Positions 1 to 6,255 of a stretch of 6,255 bases of DNA are shown here, piece by piece. Position 1 is the first letter of the stretch. Each line of letters begins with the position of its first letter. A program made the position numbers and the translations under genes. Below the pieces are notes generated by a model. That model saw only the letters and a program-made list of their open reading frames with translations, did no database searches and was not told the DNA's origin. Location of the stretch: positions 1-6,255 of the IMG/VR virus record IMGVR_UViG_2728369593_000012, one strand, 5' to 3'. The stretch is from a virus (Duplodnaviria; Heunggongvirae; Uroviricota; Caudoviricetes).

Positions 1-8
1 GAATAGTC

Positions 9-200
9 ATGACCAAAGAAGAAAAAATTCTTTATTTATTCCAACTATCGGTTAAGACTCACACTGCATATCAGACTGCTGCCATGACATCAGATAAAAA
101 TTACAGTACGTCAGAAAACCCGATAGACGACATAAGCAAGCTTTACGATAAGTTCGAAGCACTACTCGATAAAAAGTTTGCTGAGGCTGGGCTTGAGTGA
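9..200 (+). CDS. Hypothetical small protein (63 aa as given). The reading frame is open back to the window edge, so the gene may be 5'-truncated here.
   Basis: ORF in the track; no obvious Shine-Dalgarno before the ATG at 9; no in-frame stop between position 1 and 9. Lies in an AT-rich segment (18 G+C in the first 60 nt by direct count). No recognisable motif. Confidence 0.3.
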   Translation: MTKEEKILYLFQLSVKTHTAYQTAAMTSDKNYSTSENPIDDISKLYDKFEALLDKKFAEAGLE

Positions 201-426
201 TTGTTGAATAATCGACAAAACCCAACTTAAATTTTCGTCAGTGGGCTCGATGCCATGTGCGGTGAGCTCACTTTTCAAAACTCCAAGCAATTCAGAGCTG
301 ATTTTCAATATATCTGCTTGATTTCTAACTATTCCCACTTTTCCTCTCTTGGTCTACGCGCGGTCATGTTTTACGCCCAAACGACTTCACAGTTATTGTT
401 TAAAATCTGGACTTTCATTTTGTTCT

Positions 427-648
427 TTAACCTCCAGATTTCCGCGCATCTAAAGGCGCATTCTCATTTGGTGTGAACTGAATAGTTGTGCTGATATTGA
501 TTAATGCCCCGACACACAAGACTACGCACTCAGAGCAGATAGCAACTTCATCTTTTCCGCCTTTGGCGATGATTTTTTTTGCCTGCAGCTCGTTTGCGCC
601 ACAAAACGAGCATGTGAAATAACGGTTCATTTGCGCTCTCTTACACAT
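427..648 (-). CDS. ClpX-type C4 zinc-finger (ClpX N-terminal zinc-binding domain-like) small protein
   Basis: Translation contains FTCSFCG...KKIIAKG...VAICSECVVLC, which aligns by eye with the E. coli ClpX N-terminus (LLYCSFCGK...KLIAG...VYICDECVDLC): two CxxC pairs with conserved spacing. An alternative start at the second Met (ATG ending at 630, MNRYFTCSFCG) is preceded by a weak GAGAG SD-like motif; the ATG at 648 has none. First gene downstream of the putative leftward promoter. Confidence 0.6.
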   Translation of the reverse strand: MCKRAQMNRYFTCSFCGANELQAKKIIAKGGKDEVAICSECVVLCVGALINISTTIQFTPNENAPLDARKSGG

Positions 649-801
649 AGTATTTAACGAATCATCCGGTCATTCATACGCCACCGGCGGCTACTTCGTG
701 GGCGTCCTGCCTGTTCGTTTTTGACATTTACTGACTGCTTACGACACATGCACCGTGTTGCAACCAGATTTTGTTGTAATCCTGTAGTTGGTCTGGAACA
801 A

Positions 802-859
802 AAGATAAAATTAAATTGCGAGATATGCAAGTGATATTTGCGGGATATGCAAATTGATA
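802..859 (-). promoter_or_regulatory. OL-like operator pair with putative leftward pL-type promoter
   Basis: Two tandem 15-bp sites, TTGCGAGATATGCAA (816-830) and TTGCGGGATATGCAA (838-852), inside a ~21-bp direct repeat; same TTGC-N7-GCAA dyad as the cI/cro intergenic site at 1619-1633. On the minus strand a -35 TTGCAT (830-825), 17-bp spacer and -10 TATCTT (807-802) can be drawn; the promoter assignment is tentative. Confidence 0.4.
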
Positions 860-862
860 GGT

Positions 863-886
863 AATAAAAAGCCACCTTTCGGTGGC
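863..886 (-). terminator. Rho-independent terminator downstream of cI
   Basis: Plus strand aaaaaGCCACCtttcGGTGGC (866-886); on the minus strand this reads GCCACC-GAAA-GGTGGC followed by TTTTT, 20 nt after the cI stop codon (906-908). Confidence 0.55.
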
Positions 887-905
887 CGATGGAAGGATAT
901 TGAGG

Positions 906-1598
906 TTAATTATGTCTCTTAAGGGTTTGCGACTGACTGATTAAGACCTTTCCAAAGACCATGAATCGGTGTTCGTTTTCGCTAGTAATTCCCCATTCAC
1001 GGTAAATCTGGTTATCAGAAATCACCAGCAGTTTGTCAGGAATCATTTGAAGTCTTTTAACGTATATTTTGTCATCAAAACCAAAGACATATATACCATC
1101 ACCATCAAACTGATTGATGCTGACATCAACGAAGATGAGATCTCCTGGCTCAATGGTTGGACACATACTGTCCCCACGAACGTTGATAACTTTGATGTGA
1201 TTGGCTGGTCGTCCGCCGAACATTGATACAGCATTATCAGTTCTGTATTCGATGGCATGAATCACATCAATGACATCACCGCCCTGGATAAGGCCATTTC
1301 CCGCACTGGCACTGATATCCAGCATTTCAATACGGAACACATCCTTCACCTGCGCAACATCCTCATCATTACTGTTTTTATATACAGTATTACTTTTGTG
1401 GGCAGAGGTAAAGAGATCAGCAATATCAACACCTAAGCTCTTGGCAATATTACTCAGTGTTTGTTCGGTAAATTGTTTTTGCTTACCCGTTTCTAAGCGC
1501 GAGATGTTCGCCGCATCTACTCCTATTGCTTCAGCGAGATCGGCGATTTTCATGTTCTTCGCTTGGCGAAGTTGTCTGACTCGGTTTCCTATGTTCAT
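906..1598 (-). CDS. cI: CI-type phage repressor (N-terminal XRE-family HTH, C-terminal S24 LexA-like autopeptidase domain)
   Basis: 230 aa. N-terminus has an HTH pattern (KIADLAEAIGVDAANISRLETG). C-terminus has the S24 signature GDSM (Ser144) and KRL (Lys181), and a candidate Ala-Gly cleavage site at SASA-GNG (A99-G100). Divergent from a cro-like gene, typical of lambdoid immunity regions. Confidence 0.9.
   Translation of the reverse strand: MNIGNRVRQLRQAKNMKIADLAEAIGVDAANISRLETGKQKQFTEQTLSNIAKSLGVDIADLFTSAHKSNTVYKNSNDEDVAQVKDVFRIEMLDISASAGNGLIQGGDVIDVIHAIEYRTDNAVSMFGGRPANHIKVINVRGDSMCPTIEPGDLIFVDVSINQFDGDGIYVFGFDDKIYVKRLQMIPDKLLVISDNQIYREWGITSENEHRFMVFGKVLISQSQTLKRHN
1370..1389. promoter_or_regulatory. 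Near-consensus SOS (LexA) box inside the cI coding sequence
   Basis: TACTGTTTTTATATACAGTA: perfect CTGT-N8-ACAG core with TA flanks and an AT-only spacer, matching the E. coli LexA box consensus TACTG(TA)5CAGTA at all conserved positions. Lies in codons 70-77 (linker) of cI. Only such site in the window. Confidence 0.5.
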
Positions 1599-1695
1599 GC
1601 GTTTATTACATTTCTTTATTGCGTGATAAGCAAATCAACTTGCGCAAAATAATTGCGTGAAATAACATGCATAACGCGCAATATTTGGAGGGCGT
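1599..1695. promoter_or_regulatory. Divergent cI/cro operator-promoter region (OR-like, with pRM-like and pR-like promoters)
   Basis: 97-bp intergenic region between divergent cI and cro. Operator-like dyads: TTGCGTGATAAGCAA (1619-1633) and, in reverse orientation, ATGCATAACGCGCAA (1667-1681); further TTGCG/CGCAA half-sites at 1640-1647 and 1653-1660. Candidate leftward promoter: -35 TTGCTT (1633-1628) and -10 TGTAAT (1610-1605) on the minus strand. Candidate rightward promoter: -35 TTGCGC (1640-1645) and -10 TAACAT (1663-1668). Confidence 0.6.
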
Positions 1696-1956
1696 ATGCA
1701 ATCACCATTACGAAATGTGCGTAAGGCGCATGGTTTCACTTTGCAGCATGTTGCTGCGGGTGTTCAAGTCAATCCAGCGACGTTGAGTCGTATTGAGAGG
1801 CTGGAGCAGATTCCATCTATCGAGCTTGCAGAACGTTTAGCCAATTTTTTTAAGGGTGAAGTCAGCGAAATGCAGATTCTTTATCCGGCACGTTTTCAAT
1901 CTAGCCAAAACCAGAATGGGTTTAAACCACAGGAACAGGAGGTGAACCGTGGGTAA
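1696..1956 (+). CDS. cro: Cro-like XRE-family HTH transcriptional regulator
   Basis: 86 aa; ATG preceded by GGAGG (1687-1691). HTH pattern FTLQHVAAGVQVNPATLSRIE. Divergent from cI. 3' end overlaps the next gene by 8 nt. Confidence 0.75.
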   Translation: MQSPLRNVRKAHGFTLQHVAAGVQVNPATLSRIERLEQIPSIELAERLANFFKGEVSEMQILYPARFQSSQNQNGFKPQEQEVNRG

Positions 1957-2500
1957 GCATCACTGGAAAGTAGAAAAACAGCCTGAGTGGTACGTGAAAG
2001 CTGTCAGAAAAACTATCGCAGCGTTGCCGGGGGGGTACGCTGAAGCTGCTGACTGGCTGGATGTAACAGAGCACGCATTATTTAACCGCCTTCGTGCCGA
2101 TGGCGATCAGATTTTCCCGCTGGGATGGGCAATGATTTTGCAACGTGCTGGTGGAACTCACTTCATTGCTGACGCTGTGGCGCAGTCTGCAAATGGCGTC
2201 TTTGTGTCTCTTCCTGATGTCGAGGATGTGGACAACGCCGATATCAACCAACGCCTGCTGGAAGTCATTGAACAGATCGGCAGTTATTCAAAACAGATTC
2301 GTTCAGCAATCGAAGACGGTGTAGTGGAACCGCATGAGAAGACAGCAATTAACGATGAGCTGTACCTCTCAATTTCGAAGCTGCAGGAGCATGCAGCTCT
2401 GGTCTACAAAATCTTTTGCGTTTCAGAAAGTAGTGACGCCCGCGAGTGTGCAGCTCCGGGCGCCGTGGCGTGTCGTGACTGTGGAGAAACTAACGCATGA
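1949..2500 (+). CDS. CII-like / YdaT-like phage regulatory protein (lysis-lysogeny regulator analogue)
   Basis: 183 aa; GTG start at 1949 preceded by AGGAGG (1937-1942); an in-frame TGA at 1943-1945 prevents upstream extension. Positioned immediately after cro, as in cI-cro-cII (lambda) and racR-ydaS-ydaT (Rac/CP-933P) modules. Family assignment is from recollection of YdaT/CII-like proteins, not a search. Confidence 0.55.
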
Positions 2501-2658
2501 ACAGTTTAACAACACACTACCGTCGCTCGCAACTGATTGCGCTTCCTGTACCGGGTGGAAAAGCGAAGGTGGAGTATTGCTATGCAGTAAATGTACCAGG
2601 TGACAGGGAAATTGTAACCCACAGCTTTGTCAGAGTGGGCGTGTGGGTGGATTTCTAA
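2497..2658 (+). CDS. Hypothetical small protein (53 aa), not in the supplied ORF track
   Basis: ATG at 2497 overlaps the upstream TGA stop (ATGA, 2497-2500), suggesting translational coupling; GGAG at 2483-2486. Translation [53 protein letters not shown]; stop TAA at 2656-2658. Confidence 0.35.
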
Positions 2659-2679
2659 CCGGCAGAAGGAGACAGTCCT

Positions 2680-2859
2680 TTGCGACAAGTTAACCGCTGG
2701 TTCAAAGATCACTACGGAGTGCCCGTCAGAGTCATTCGTTGGGAGCCGGAAACACAACGTGTTATCTACCTCCGCGAAGGCTATGAGCATGAGTGCTTCA
2801 GCCCGCTCGAACAGTTTCGTCGTAAATTCAGGGAAATAGAGGTCGGTCATGAGCACTAA
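2680..2859 (+). CDS. Hypothetical small protein (59 aa), TTG start, not in the supplied ORF track
   Basis: Strong SD AAGGAG (2666-2671) 8 nt upstream of TTG at 2680. Translation (M)[58 protein letters not shown]; stop TAA at 2857-2859, overlapping the start of the replication gene by 11 nt. Same frame as 2497..2658, separated by a single TAA. Confidence 0.35.
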
Positions 2860-3790
2860 ATTAACCGGCTATGTATGGGATGGTTGCGCTGCATCAGGCA
2901 TGAAATTATCCAGCGTGGCAATTATGGCCCGCCTGGCTGATTTCAGTAATGACGAAGGTGTGTGCTGGCCATCAATTGAAACCATTGCCCGCCAGATTGG
3001 CGCGGGAATGAGTACCGTCAGAACGGCTATCGCACGGCTGGAAGCAGAAGGCTGGTTAACGCGTAAGGCGCGTCGCCAGGGTAACCGCAATGCGTCGAAT
3101 GTTTATCAGCTTAACGTTGCGAAGCTTCAGGCAGCGGCATTTTCTCAACTGTCAGATTCTGACCCGTCAAAATCTGACGCATCAAAATCTGACCCGTCAA
3201 AATTTGATGCGTCGAAATCTGGCAAAAAAGCGGGTTTTCACCCGTCAGAATCTGGCGGGGATCCGTCAGTAAAATCAAAACATGATCCGTCAGATAAAAA
3301 AACTTCTCGTCCGGACGCTTCGCAACCGGACACGCAGACGGCTGAACAGGAGTTTTTAACTCGCGATCCTGATGCGGTTGTATTCAGCCCTAAAAAGCGC
3401 CAGTGGGGAACGCAGGATGATTTGACCTGCGCACAGTGGCTCTGGAAAAAAATCATCGCCCTGTACGAGCAGGCCGCCGAATGTGACGGCGAGGTGGTTC
3501 GTCCCAAAGAACCGAACTGGACAGCCTGGGCAAACGAAATTCGCCTGATGTGTGTGCAGGATGGTCGTACTCATAAACAAATCTGCGAGATGTACAGCCG
3601 CGTCAGTCGCGATCCGTTCTGGTGCCGTAACGTGCTCAGCCCGTCGAAGCTGCGGGAAAAATGGGATGAGCTTTCCCTGCGCTTATCGCCGTCCGTCAGC
3701 ACGTACACCGAAAAACGCGAAGACCCGTACTTCAAAGCCAGTTACGACAACGTGGACTACAGCCAGATCCCGGCAGGATTCAGGGGGTGA
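2849..3790 (+). CDS. Phage replication initiation protein (N-terminal winged-helix DNA-binding domain; O-like / DnaT-like C-terminal region)
   Basis: 313 aa; ATG with GAGG 5 nt upstream. N-terminal pattern ARLADFSNDEGVCWPSIETIARQIGAGMSTVRTAIARLEAEGWL is typical of phage replication-initiator HTH domains. Low-complexity linker encoded by the iteron array. Occupies the O-gene position after cII. The C-terminal homology is recalled, not searched. Confidence 0.65.
   Translation: MSTKLTGYVWDGCAASGMKLSSVAIMARLADFSNDEGVCWPSIETIARQIGAGMSTVRTAIARLEAEGWLTRKARRQGNRNASNVYQLNVAKLQAAAFSQLSDSDPSKSDASKSDPSKFDASKSGKKAGFHPSESGGDPSVKSKHDPSDKKTSRPDASQPDTQTAEQEFLTRDPDAVVFSPKKRQWGTQDDLTCAQWLWKKIIALYEQAAECDGEVVRPKEPNWTAWANEIRLMCVQDGRTHKQICEMYSRVSRDPFWCRNVLSPSKLREKWDELSLRLSPSVSTYTEKREDPYFKASYDNVDYSQIPAGFRG
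3151..3300. repeat. Iteron array (putative phage replication origin) inside the replication initiator gene
   Basis: Four tandem 15-bp units at 3158-3217 (TCTGACCCGTCAAAA / TCTGACGCATCAAAA / TCTGACCCGTCAAAA / TTTGATGCGTCGAAA), plus further CCGTCAG copies at 3241-3249, 3262-3269 and 3286-3293 in both orientations. Internal dyads GTCAGAtTCTGAC (3151-3163) and CGTCAaaatcTGACG. Followed by an A-rich stretch (3271-3303). Mirrors the lambda ori-within-O arrangement. Confidence 0.5.
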
Positions 3791-3792
3791 GC

Positions 3793-4281
3793 ATGAGTCT
3801 TTTGAATGACGTTCAGAAATTCATTGAAGCCCATCCGGGCTGTACTTCCGGAGATATTGCGGATGCTTTTGCCGGTTACTCACGGCAGCGCGTTCTGCAG
3901 TCAGCAAGCAAGTTACGTCAGAGTGGGCGTGTGGCTCACCGTTGTGAAGGAGATACACGCAGACATTTCCCGCGCCTGACTGAGAGAGCGCAGGAACCGG
4001 AACCACAACCAGTTCGTGAAACCAGACCTGTGCGCAATTTCTATGTCGGCACTAACGATCCCCGTGTGATTTTGTGCCTGACCCGCCAGGCGGAAGAACT
4101 GGAGTCCAGAGGCTTATACCGTCGTGCTGCAACCGTGTGGATGGCGGCATTCCGTGAAAGCCACTCCCAGCCAGAACGAAACAATTTTCTGGCGCGTCGT
4201 GAGCGGTGCTTACGGAAAAGCAGCAAGCGCGCTGCATCGGGTGAAGAGTGGTATCTGTCAGGGAATTACGTGGGGGCTTAA
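3793..4281 (+). CDS. PerC-family transcriptional regulator-like protein with N-terminal extension
   Basis: C-terminal segment AEELESRGLYRRAATVWMAAF...RRERCLRKS matches the PerC/Pch signature (GLWRRAA..RW...RR..CL) from memory. The ATG at 3793 has GGGGG 5 nt upstream (the ORF track uses GTG at 3787). Stop TAA (4279-4281) overlaps the next ATG. Confidence 0.55.
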   Translation: MSLLNDVQKFIEAHPGCTSGDIADAFAGYSRQRVLQSASKLRQSGRVAHRCEGDTRRHFPRLTERAQEPEPQPVRETRPVRNFYVGTNDPRVILCLTRQAEELESRGLYRRAATVWMAAFRESHSQPERNNFLARRERCLRKSSKRAASGEEWYLSGNYVGA

Positions 4282-4934
4282 TGAGTAATAAATATTGCCA
4301 GGCGCTGGTGGAACTGCGGAACAAACCAGCCCATGAACTGAAGGAAGTGGGCGATCAGTGGCGCACGCCGGACAACATTTTCTGGGGAATTAACACCCTG
4401 TTTGGCCCGTTTGTTCTGGATCTGTTCACTGACGGTGATAACGCCAAATGTGCCGCGTATTACACGGCGGAAGACAACGCGCTGGCGCATGACTGGTCAG
4501 AACGTCTTGCGGAGCTTAAAGGTGCTGCCTTTGGTAATCCCCCATACAGCCGCGCCAGTCAGCATGAGGGGCAATACATCACCGGCATGCGTTACATCAT
4601 GAAACATGCCAGTGCCATGCGTGATAAGGGCGGGCGCTATGTTTTCCTGATCAAAGCTGCCACCAGCGAAGTGTGGTGGCCGGAAGATGCAGATCATATT
4701 GCTTTTATTCGCGGGCGTATTGGTTTTGAACTGCCTGTCTGGTTTATCCCGAAAGACGAGAAGCAGGTACCGACAGGAGCTTTTTTCGCTGGTGCTATTG
4801 CTGTTTTTGACAAGACCTGGAAGGGACCGGCAATCAGCTACATCGGGCGCGATGAACTTGAGGCATGTGGTGAGGCGTTTCTGGCGCAGGTTCGCCAGCA
4901 GGCGGAAAAACTGGTCAGGGAGATGGCGGCATGA
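4281..4934 (+). CDS. Phage-type DNA N6-adenine methyltransferase (Dam-like, orphan)
   Basis: NPPY motif (GNPPYS), the catalytic (D/N)PPY signature of N6-adenine methyltransferases; size and gene context fit the phage Dam family. Start at ATG 4281 (TAATG overlap with the upstream gene); the ORF track's longer form begins at GTG 4248. No restriction endonuclease gene adjacent. Confidence 0.75.
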   Translation: MSNKYCQALVELRNKPAHELKEVGDQWRTPDNIFWGINTLFGPFVLDLFTDGDNAKCAAYYTAEDNALAHDWSERLAELKGAAFGNPPYSRASQHEGQYITGMRYIMKHASAMRDKGGRYVFLIKAATSEVWWPEDADHIAFIRGRIGFELPVWFIPKDEKQVPTGAFFAGAIAVFDKTWKGPAISYIGRDELEACGEAFLAQVRQQAEKLVREMAA

Positions 4935-5257
4935 CGACGTTAACTCAATGCCAGCAGCAGGTGCTGGATATGCTGATTTCTTATCAGAAAGAACGTGGCT
5001 TCCCGCCAACCAATCAGGAGGTGGCAACCATGCTGGGATACCGTTCGGTGAATGCAGCGGTGGAGCATCTTCGCGCACTGGAGAAAAAAGGCGTCATCAC
5101 GATAAAGCGTGGCGTGGCCCGGGGGATCACGCTTCATACCGCAGTGAAGGACGACGACAGCGAAGCGGTCGGGATCATCCGCGCACTGCTTGCCGGTGAG
5201 GAAAACGCAAGGCTGCGTGCAACCCACTGGTTACATGAGAGAGGCCTGAAAGTATGA
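4931..5257 (+). CDS. LexA N-terminal DNA-binding-domain-only protein (LexA-like winged HTH; no S24 peptidase domain)
   Basis: 108 aa. LTQCQQQVLDMLISYQKERGFPPTNQEVATMLGYRSVNAAVEHLRALEKKGVITIKRGVARGITL aligns by eye along its length with E. coli LexA residues ~4-70 ([65 protein letters not shown]), including the recognition helix. ATGA overlaps at both ends (4931-4934 and 5254-5257). Confidence 0.75.
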   Translation: MTTLTQCQQQVLDMLISYQKERGFPPTNQEVATMLGYRSVNAAVEHLRALEKKGVITIKRGVARGITLHTAVKDDDSEAVGIIRALLAGEENARLRATHWLHERGLKV

Positions 5258-5643
5258 AGCTGATCCTGCCTTTCCCGCCCAGCGTGAACACCTACTGGCG
5301 ACACCCCAACAAAGGGGCATTTGCTGGTAAGAGCCTGATAAGCGAGGCGGGGCGAAAATTTCAGAGCGCGGCGTGCGCAGCAATAGTTGAGCAGTTACGT
5401 CGTCTGCCAAAACCAACGTCGGCACCTGCTTCAGTGGAGATCGTGTTGTTTCCGCCGGATAACCGGATCCGCGATCTGGACAACTATAACAAGGCGCTGT
5501 TTGACGCCCTGACCCACGCGGGTGTGTGGGAAGACGACAGACAGGTGAAAAGAATGCTGGTGGAGTGGGGACCGGTTATCCCGAAAGGGAAGGTCGAGAT
5601 CACTATCAGTAAGTATGAGAAAACGGCGGGTGCAGCCGCCTGA
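5254..5643 (+). CDS. rusA: Crossover junction endodeoxyribonuclease RusA (Holliday junction resolvase)
   Basis: 129 aa; LPFPPSVNTYWRH...DLDNYNKALFDALTHAGVWEDDRQV resembles E. coli RusA (LPWPPSNNRYYRH...[25 protein letters not shown]). Typical nin-region gene of lambdoid phages. Confidence 0.85.
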   Translation: MKLILPFPPSVNTYWRHPNKGAFAGKSLISEAGRKFQSAACAAIVEQLRRLPKPTSAPASVEIVLFPPDNRIRDLDNYNKALFDALTHAGVWEDDRQVKRMLVEWGPVIPKGKVEITISKYEKTAGAAA

Positions 5644-5662
5644 TTAAGAGGAGAAACGAAGT

Positions 5663-6255
5663 ATGAATAATCTGATGGTTATTGATGGTATTGAAGTTCG
5701 TCGTGATGCTTATGGGCGTTACAGCCTGAACGATCTGCACAGGGCAGCCGGGGGAGAACAAAAAAACCGCCCGAAATACTGGCTCTCCAATAAGCAAACC
5801 TGTGAATTGATTGAACAACTTTTCACCGAGGGTGGAATTCCGCCTCTGGAACAAAATCAACCAGTTAGCGTCATTAATGGCGGAAATAACCAGGGGACGT
5901 ATGTCTGCAAAGAACTGGTGTATGCCTATGCAATGTGGATCAGCCCGTCATTCCATCTGAAGGTGATCCGTACTTTCGATATGGTAACCAGCGCACCGGA
6001 AAAATTATCCGGGCAGGCTGCTGACAAGATGCAGGCTGGAGTGATTCTGCTGGACTTTATGCGCAGGGAGTTAAACCTGTCTAACTCTTCAGTGCTTGGT
6101 GCCTGTCAGAAACTCCAGGAGGCTGTTGGCTTACCGAATCTGGCACCGCGCTATGCCATTGATGCTCCTGCTGATGCACTCGATGGCTCAAGCCGCCCTA
6201 CGCTATCATTGAGTGCACTGCTGAAGCAGTATGGTATCCGCCTTACGGCTAATCA
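5663..6255 (+). CDS. KilA-N domain-containing protein (3'-truncated at window end)
   Basis: ATG at 5663 with AAGAGGAG (5646-5653) upstream; the frame stays open to the window end, so it is absent from the ORF track. MVIDGIEVRRDAYGRYSLNDLHRAAGG...YWLSNKQTCELIEQL...GTYVCKELVYAYAMWISPSFHLKVI matches the KilA-N/APSES-type pattern. Confidence 0.7.
   Translation, partial: MNNLMVIDGIEVRRDAYGRYSLNDLHRAAGGEQKNRPKYWLSNKQTCELIEQLFTEGGIPPLEQNQPVSVINGGNNQGTYVCKELVYAYAMWISPSFHLKVIRTFDMVTSAPEKLSGQAADKMQAGVILLDFMRRELNLSNSSVLGACQKLQEAVGLPNLAPRYAIDAPADALDGSSRPTLSLSALLKQYGIRLTAN

Follow-up and report, generated by a model that had tools for sequence, protein, structure and literature searches.

How is a tandem array of short repeats that lies inside a phage replication gene, in frame with it, to be understood? 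The question is raised by a 6,255-nucleotide stretch of caudoviral DNA (positions 1 to 6,255 of IMG/VR record IMGVR_UViG_2728369593_000012; hereafter the window, whose coordinates are used throughout), where such an array is found within the gene of an O-like replication initiator. The initial annotation, made from the sequence alone, interpreted the array as an origin of replication located within the initiator gene. Our analysis supports this interpretation computationally, by the O-like nature of the gene, conservation of the repeats at the DNA level, their co-variation with the N-terminal domain of the initiator and an adjoining minimum of DNA stability. Judging from sequence comparison and analogy, we estimate at about 80% the probability that the segment 3151-3308 is the replication origin of a lambdoid (SfII/SfIV/CPS-53-type) prophage, placed within the linker-coding part of its own initiator gene. 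The repeats themselves would very probably be bound by the initiator, as the iterons of a lambda-style origin.

The initiator gene (2849-3790, plus strand) is an open reading frame coding for a 313 aa protein with matches to Pfam HTH_36 and PHROG 391. The latter family, described as "replication initiation O-like", matches both ends of the protein (E=1e-42 for the N-terminal part and 3e-74 for the C-terminal part). The N-terminal winged-helix domain (2849-3139, plus strand; Pfam and PHROG), presumably the iteron-binding module, contains HTH_36 (PF13730) at residues 23-70 (E=4.3e-11, 42.9 bits vs a cut-off of 25). The C-terminal domain (3338-3787, plus strand; BLASTP and PHROGs) is a homologue of the lambda O C-domain and presumably serves as the replisome-recruiting module. 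BLASTP against lambda O gave E=2e-25 with 30% identity over 216 aa, best across residues 180-277, and the stretch conserved with the lambda O C-domain reads WGT..DLT..W...NF.GWAN.IRLM..DGR.H...C......D.FW..NVLSP.KLR.KW. The same domain also matches PHROGs 277 and 9773 (both O-like) and 2514 (DnaD-like). The deposited names of the gene product in SfIV, SfII and vB_EcoS-569R4 are replication protein O or primosomal protein, and the PGAP label is only "helix-turn-helix domain-containing protein". A single-sequence AlphaFold model of the protein was uninformative (mean pLDDT 43) and was not used. The gene is located in the early-right operon, 3' of cI, cro and cII, as expected for a lambda-type origin, and is the sole recognisable replication gene of this phage type.

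The linker-coding segment between the two domains holds six 13-bp near-palindromes (3151-3256) and two half-site repeats. In the best-conserved register, five of the 13-mers (iterons), with the consensus GTCARAATCTGAC, stand in tandem at 3151-3223, starting at 3151, 3166, 3181, 3196 and 3211; they follow an exact 15-bp period with 2-bp gaps, three spacer positions of each 15-bp unit being poorly conserved. The sixth iteron, GTCAGAATCTGGC, is isolated at 3244-3256. Tandem Repeats Finder placed 4.3 copies at 3158-3221 with a period of 15 bp (81% matches) and also gave a period of 30 bp (88% matches), and a separate repeat search lengthened the 15-bp array to 5-6 copies starting from 3151. Position 3158 is a first codon position, so that the units are in frame and code for SDPSK, SDASK, SDPSK and FDASK. 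Both the tandem 15-bp repeats and their in-frame SDPSK/SDASK coding, as given in the initial annotation, were thereby recovered. Its further CCGTCAG-type copies are also present, though not in both orientations as it had stated: every CCGTCAR of the array is on the plus strand, and the 13-mer has minus-strand matches because each 13-mer is a near-palindrome.

This concentration of repeats is far from random. CCGTCAR occurs nine times in the window vs 1.48 ± 1.14 expected, a number attained in none of 200 shuffles, and five of the nine copies (at 3164, 3194, 3242, 3263 and 3287) belong to the segment in question. With up to two mismatches allowed, GTCARAATCTGAC gave 15 strand-hits vs 3.65 expected, again attained in no shuffle, and ten of the 15 fall within 3151-3256. 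The repeats cluster once per genome: in the 37.4-kb phage genome used for comparison (L168, 99.9% identity over the initiator gene), all sites with zero or one mismatch to GTCARAATCTGAC fall in one 106-bp cluster. Several binding registers are possible, namely the 13-mer GTCAGA-N-TCTGAC, the 14-mer TCTGAC-NN-GTCAGA, or overlapping 22-bp dyads forming a 30-bp super-unit, the last of which would account for the 30-bp super-period.

Since the repeats are in frame, their conservation could reflect either the DNA or the peptide. A scan of one genome per species yielded 79 loci, from which truncated, duplicate and distant entries were removed to leave 67 distinct genes, including that of the window. 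They come from about 35 genera of Enterobacterales (among them Escherichia, Yersinia, Providencia, Proteus, Rahnella, Pantoea and Tatumella), and their N-domains are 69-92% identical in amino acid sequence to that of the window. The initial annotation had pointed to homologous replication genes as the place where loss of the repeats would tell against an origin; the array is kept in all 67. The N-domain has an ordinary coding pattern of conservation, with major-allele frequencies of 0.87, 0.93 and 0.56 at codon positions 1, 2 and 3, whereas the 63-nt linker core lacks codon periodicity altogether (0.90, 0.89 and 0.87); the difference in third positions is highly significant (Mann-Whitney p=4e-8).

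Codon choice within the units tells the same. A search with nothing but the peptide pattern S[DE]xS[KE], hence blind to codons, gave 194 repeat units. The first serine is encoded by TCT in 84% of the units vs 9% elsewhere in the same genes, the second (Ser4) by TCA in 85% vs 16%, lysine by AAA in 99% vs 63% and aspartate by GAC in 82% vs 49%. In a set of 320 units, the information content is 1.3-2.0 bits per position in the TCAAAATCTGA(C) block, except at the final base (0.8), and 0.4-0.9 bits at the three spacer positions; the contiguous TCAAAATCTGAC block, apart from the last base with its 0.8 bits, is thus the most conserved part of the units and the spacers the least. The most conserved block of the whole gene is 3235-3279, which holds the sixth iteron: most positions, including most third positions, are at least 90% conserved among the 67 homologs. 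Within the core block TTTTSACCCGYCAGAATCTGG the variable sites are amino-acid-changing first codon positions (D/H, S/P), and hardly any third position varies. In near-identical prophages, array length changes in steps of complete in-frame units only (+15 or +30 bp); point variants in the tandem units are few and most of them sit in the spacers. Because third positions are conserved, codons are near-fixed and amino acid changes are tolerated, the comparison points to selection acting on the DNA sequence and not on the peptide. A mere low-complexity linker is ruled out by the conservation of codon positions and synonymous codons.

The repeats also co-vary with the N-domain of the initiator. In Citrobacter phage phiNP the same N-domain is accompanied by near-identical repeats, and after the A-run an unrelated TIGR02220-type C-domain follows. 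Judged by eye from 67 translated linker-to-C-terminal regions, at least three C-terminal sequence types are found behind one N-domain/repeat block; BLAST clustering of the last 130 aa of the homologs gave no type count, because all C-terminal regions in the close family share a conserved tail and came out as a single group. The reverse combination is seen in mEp460_4F5, which has the C-domain of the window (97% identity from about 3294 on) and a different N-domain; its array, located in the same place, is built of CATCGGGTCAAAATGAC, repeated 4-5 times at 23 bp, after which come three A-rich repeats of 12 bp. The N-domains of SfV orf39 and of a Psychrobacter homolog have 53% identity with one another and about 38% with that of the window, and these two genes share the 21-mer GGTAGTGCAAATRATTCAC, unlike the repeats of the window. 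The homologs from Thorsellia, Phlomobacter, Thermomonas and locus L079 each have their own repeats directly after the winged helix-turn-helix (wHTH) domain, and lambda fits this scheme as well, having its own N-domain type and its own repeats at that position. In Trabulsiella, the most diverged member of the close family (69%), the repeat is TTCAGAWTCYGAA, where the outer pair has changed from G..C to T..A and the dyad is kept.

Directly after the A-run the gene has two G+C-rich 14-mers, CTTCTCGTCCGGAC and CTTCGCAACCGGAC, which form a direct repeat (3303-3331, plus strand). Mosaic junctions regularly occur there, just past both the array and the A-rich tract. The same pair is present in mEp460_4F5 (L003, 3010-3038) and marks the boundary between the module of N-domain and putative origin and the C-domain module. 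This consistent position of the junctions argues for a functional module comprising the N-domain and the origin.

Between the iterons and this boundary lies the putative DNA-unwinding element. The last full iteron is followed by two GATC-headed 15-mer repeats, GATCCGTCAGTAAAA at 3260 and GATCCGTCAGATAAA at 3284 (3260-3302, plus strand, 24 bp apart), each of which consists of an iteron half-site and then an A-run. These repeats fall in and beside the A+T-rich 40-mer at 3268-3308, the least stable one of the gene, whose dG is -47.5 vs a gene mean of -58.6 with a standard deviation of 3.3, that is about 3.4 standard deviations above the mean. The A-rich tract that the initial annotation placed after the repeats is therefore real, if modest (72.5% A+T). 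Its position is conserved: in 60 of 65 homologs the gene-wide stability minimum, or most A+T-rich 40-mer, begins 1-10 bp past the first conserved GATC (3260 in the window), and the mean A+T content of the minimum is 70% vs 48% for the genes. The first GATC (3260-3263) is kept in all 65 homologs and the second (3284-3287) in 56. By analogy with the GATC-rich 13-mers of oriC, and given that the phage has its own Dam, control of the origin by Dam and SeqA is possible.

Other HTH_36-type initiator genes have a second class of repeats after the iterons, three copies of about 12 bp each, e.g., GAACCAGTCAAT, or TACAGAGAATAC in mEp460_4F5. They occupy the position of the presumed unwinding element (L164 1131-1171, L077 2882-2920, L081 2907-2950, L082 2866-2891 and L003 2969-3007). 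In the window itself, 3266-3296 (an A-rich tract, then CGTCAGA) resembles the end of the AT-rich region of lambda and the start of its right-arm palindrome (L163, 841-871). The local alignment score was 25 vs 17.4 ± 2.4 in shuffles, eight of 500 of which attained it; the resemblance is suggestive only and may be due to chance or to a remote common descent of the origin cores.

If lambda O and ori-lambda are taken as the model, the segment could work as follows. The N-terminal winged-helix domain would bind the six dyad-symmetric iterons, probably as dimers. The initiator-iteron complex would then destabilise the adjoining A+T-rich, GATC-containing stretch 3260-3308, and the lambda-O-like C-domain would recruit the host replicative helicase. 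We infer binding, unwinding, helicase loading, register and stoichiometry from this parallel.

The parallel itself is close. Ori-lambda consists of four 18-19-bp dyad iterons and an AT-rich tract, and the O protein has an N-terminal DNA-binding and a C-terminal P-binding domain. As in lambda, the candidate origin occupies the part of the initiator gene that codes for the interdomain linker, and is made up of dyad-symmetric in-frame iterons with an A+T-rich low-stability region on the C-terminal side; the C-domains are homologous (E=2e-25) and the gene likewise follows cro and cII. The differences are in the parts. The iteron sequences are unrelated (GTCARAATCTGAC in the window, ATCCCTCAAAACGAGGGA in lambda), the units are 13 bp at 15 bp instead of 18-19 bp at 20-24 bp, the N-domain scores as HTH_36 and not as Phage_rep_O, and a PerC-like gene takes the place of P.

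Several other systems resemble the locus in part. The Shiga toxin (Stx) phages 933W and P27 have lambda-type origins with six iterons (PMC7466680). There, too, extra iterons lengthen the initiator linker in frame and iteron number varies between relatives, but these phages have true lambda O and P together with lambda iterons, while the window has another N-domain, other iterons and no P. Alike in overall architecture are SfV orf39, mEp460 and the Eru-type initiators listed as "HTH" (PF13730) in non-lambdoid replication units of Stx phages, which share the C-terminal tail and the same downstream genes (yfdN-like, Dam, LexA-like, RusA) and have a linker repeat array each, although their N-domains belong to other clades and their repeat sequences differ. 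The survey of these replication units lists the PF13730 "HTH" proteins, says that nothing is known on the replication of the Eru phages and never mentions iterons (PMC8951638). The theta plasmids (RepA of pPS10 and pSC101, pi of R6K, TrfA of RK2) also combine a winged-helix initiator with repeated sites beside an A+T-rich unwinding element. Theta-plasmid iterons are direct repeats of about 17-22 bp in roughly helical phase; they do not lie within the rep gene, and DnaA boxes are usually found with them. The window differs in its 13-bp dyads, 15-bp period, intragenic position and lack of nearby DnaA boxes or integration host factor (IHF) sites: no DnaA box with up to one mismatch was found between 2489 and 5661, and no IHF consensus in or near the array, the only match in the window being at 5855.

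Our searches of the literature (SfII/SfIV, iterons, PF13730) found no paper on this origin, and the paper on the SfIV genome goes no further than naming a "replication module". The arrangement is one to be expected that is not yet described for this phage group, and it is no surprise to a phage replication specialist.

A number of observations weigh against an origin of the lambda kind. The phage has no P, DnaC, helicase or primase gene, either beside the initiator or in the 37-kb genome. Lambda iterons differ in both period and half-site spacing, which are here 15 bp (about 1.4 helical turns) and 7-8 bp from centre to centre. The A+T-rich stretch is short, contains about 70% A+T and is broken by two half-sites, and the A+T-rich tract of lambda is stronger and longer. 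Co-inheritance of the N-domain and the repeats could in part stem from their physical adjacency. Finally, the N-domain scores as HTH_36 and gave no match to Phage_rep_O (PF04492) at E<=0.01. BLASTP found no match between this domain and the N-terminus of lambda O, nor did hhalign with an 11-sequence N-domain profile, a weak test as the template was a single sequence; the same profile detected the N-domain of mEp460_4F5 with 87% probability. A published HHpred analysis assigned HTH_36 to lambda O (PMC5509034), and given this assignment a remote kinship of the two N-domains is possible.

What else could the array be? The explanation that competes best is that it acts in cis as DNA to which the initiator or some other protein binds, with the origin located elsewhere. 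Such an element might serve in autoregulation or handcuffing, as a switch under SeqA/Dam control, or as a recombination hot spot for module exchange. Conservation at the DNA level shows that the DNA is functional but does not tell in what way; the two conserved GATC sites together with the Dam gene downstream would suit such a switch, and the mosaic junctions that adjoin the array would suit such a hot spot. However, the 37-kb genome contains no second cluster of sites, and no other replication gene or candidate origin was seen in it. Moreover, the conserved stability minimum next to the array suits an unwinding element, and an initiator gene with dyads, an AT-rich tract and a lambda-O-like C-domain is the layout of the experimentally defined ori-lambda. 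A non-origin element accounts less well for the AT-rich minimum and the lambda-like layout than an origin does, and we consider it rather improbable.

Much less credible is the view that the repeats are a flexible linker (SDxSK)n generated by slippage, its DNA being functionless. In favour of it, the peptide, rich in S, D, P and K, is probably disordered, the units are in frame and copy number changes by whole units. Against this, synonymous sites are as conserved as non-synonymous ones and codons are near-fixed across about 35 genera, while the adjoining N-domain is strongly diverged at third positions; replacements of the amino acid are tolerated in places that admit no synonymous change, and neither the dyad symmetry of the unit nor the symmetric change in Trabulsiella has a rationale at the protein level. 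A role of the dyads in RNA or single-stranded form (an mRNA structure affecting translation or stability of the initiator message, or an antisense transcript) is just as hard to credit. Two findings speak for it, the better-than-shuffled folding of the top strand (z=-4.7) and a weak terminator-like hairpin on the minus strand (3244-3231). Against it, the folding is a by-product of tandem near-palindromes, whose centres of 1-2 nt are too short for hairpin loops. Rfam gave no match at gathering thresholds; in 2400-4300 no promoter-like site was seen, and the terminator-like hits were only weak 5-6-bp stems. Moreover, it is the exact bases that are conserved, and apart from the one symmetric change of the outer pair compensatory pairs are absent.

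If the array is indeed an origin, the absence of a loader gene poses a concrete mechanistic question. The lambda O C-domain binds P in lambda. The slot of P is filled here by a PerC-like gene of the yfdN family (3787-4281, plus strand; Pfam PerC E=7.9e-9), whose start overlaps the stop codon of the initiator gene; we mention it for context and claim no origin role for it. Among the homologous loci the gene next to the initiator is Dam-like methyltransferase in 27 cases and PerC-like in 25; in the close family only one P-like and one DnaC-like neighbour (L045, L049) were recognised by reading the sequences. Because the phage has no P, DnaC or helicase gene, helicase recruitment must use either host DnaB and DnaC directly or an unrecognised adaptor. 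We tentatively speculate that this may be a case of "initiator-solo" replication, where a lambda-O-like protein operates without a partner gene on 13-bp dyads of 15-bp period and a GATC-headed unwinding element, possibly gated by Dam and SeqA; it is a doubtful proposal so far. If it were true, a lambda-O C-domain could interact directly with host DnaB and DnaC or with the PerC-like YfdN.

An origin together with its recognition sequence would provide a testable minimal replicon for this prophage family and would explain the conservation of the linker peptide. It would also suggest a rule for finding origins of phages with HTH_36-type initiators, namely repeats directly after the wHTH domain followed by the stability minimum of the gene, and such a rule would extend to the poorly understood replication units of Stx phages.

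The initiator gene is widespread. It is present at full length in 1,576 of 5,426 complete E. coli genomes (29%) as well as in the Shigella serotype-converting phages SfII and SfIV; identity over the gene is 99.9% with Escherichia phage vB_EcoS-569R4 and 98-99% with SfIV and SfII. The yfdN annotation presumably ties the initiator family to the K-12 cryptic prophage CPS-53. Many E. coli genomes contain 138 aa fusions of the first ~80 residues of the initiator to a RusA fragment, or truncated initiators (e.g., proteins P0047-P0059, loci L056 and L074), which are deletion remnants of this prophage type. Three E. coli "plasmid" records (CP085522.1, which is very sparsely annotated, NZ_CP081716.1 and NZ_CP081704.1) are circular, 37-44 kb long and without replicon typing. 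They are genomes of this phage type, present as extrachromosomal circles caught in assemblies; they are compatible with autonomous circles and are no evidence of origin function.

The window as a whole covers the immunity and early-right region of a lambdoid prophage. Apart from the genes already described, it includes a cI-like repressor (S24 peptidase and HTH; 906-1598, minus strand), a cro-like gene (1696-1956) and a CII(CP76)-type gene (1949-2500) upstream of the initiator, and Dam methyltransferase (4248-4934), a protein consisting of the LexA DNA-binding domain only (4931-5257) and RusA (5254-5643) downstream. Two small open reading frames in one frame, 2497-2658 and 2680-2859, precede the initiator gene. 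The second runs 11 nt into it and probably corresponds to the "DUF4222 domain-containing protein" listed beside the initiator in RefSeq; the SfIV annotation of the region equivalent to 2497-2859 uses another frame (gp40).

The last ~20 codons of the initiator gene (3727-3787) encode the C-terminal tail EDPYFKASYDNVDYSQIPAGFRG, which has 95-99% DNA identity in the initiators of SfV, mEp460, cdtI, Stx2a phages and Ayreon, the rest of these genes being unrelated at the DNA level. The phiNP protein ends in a related tail, DVDYS-LPENSGFRS. This conserved tail may be a docking motif or a recombination boundary.

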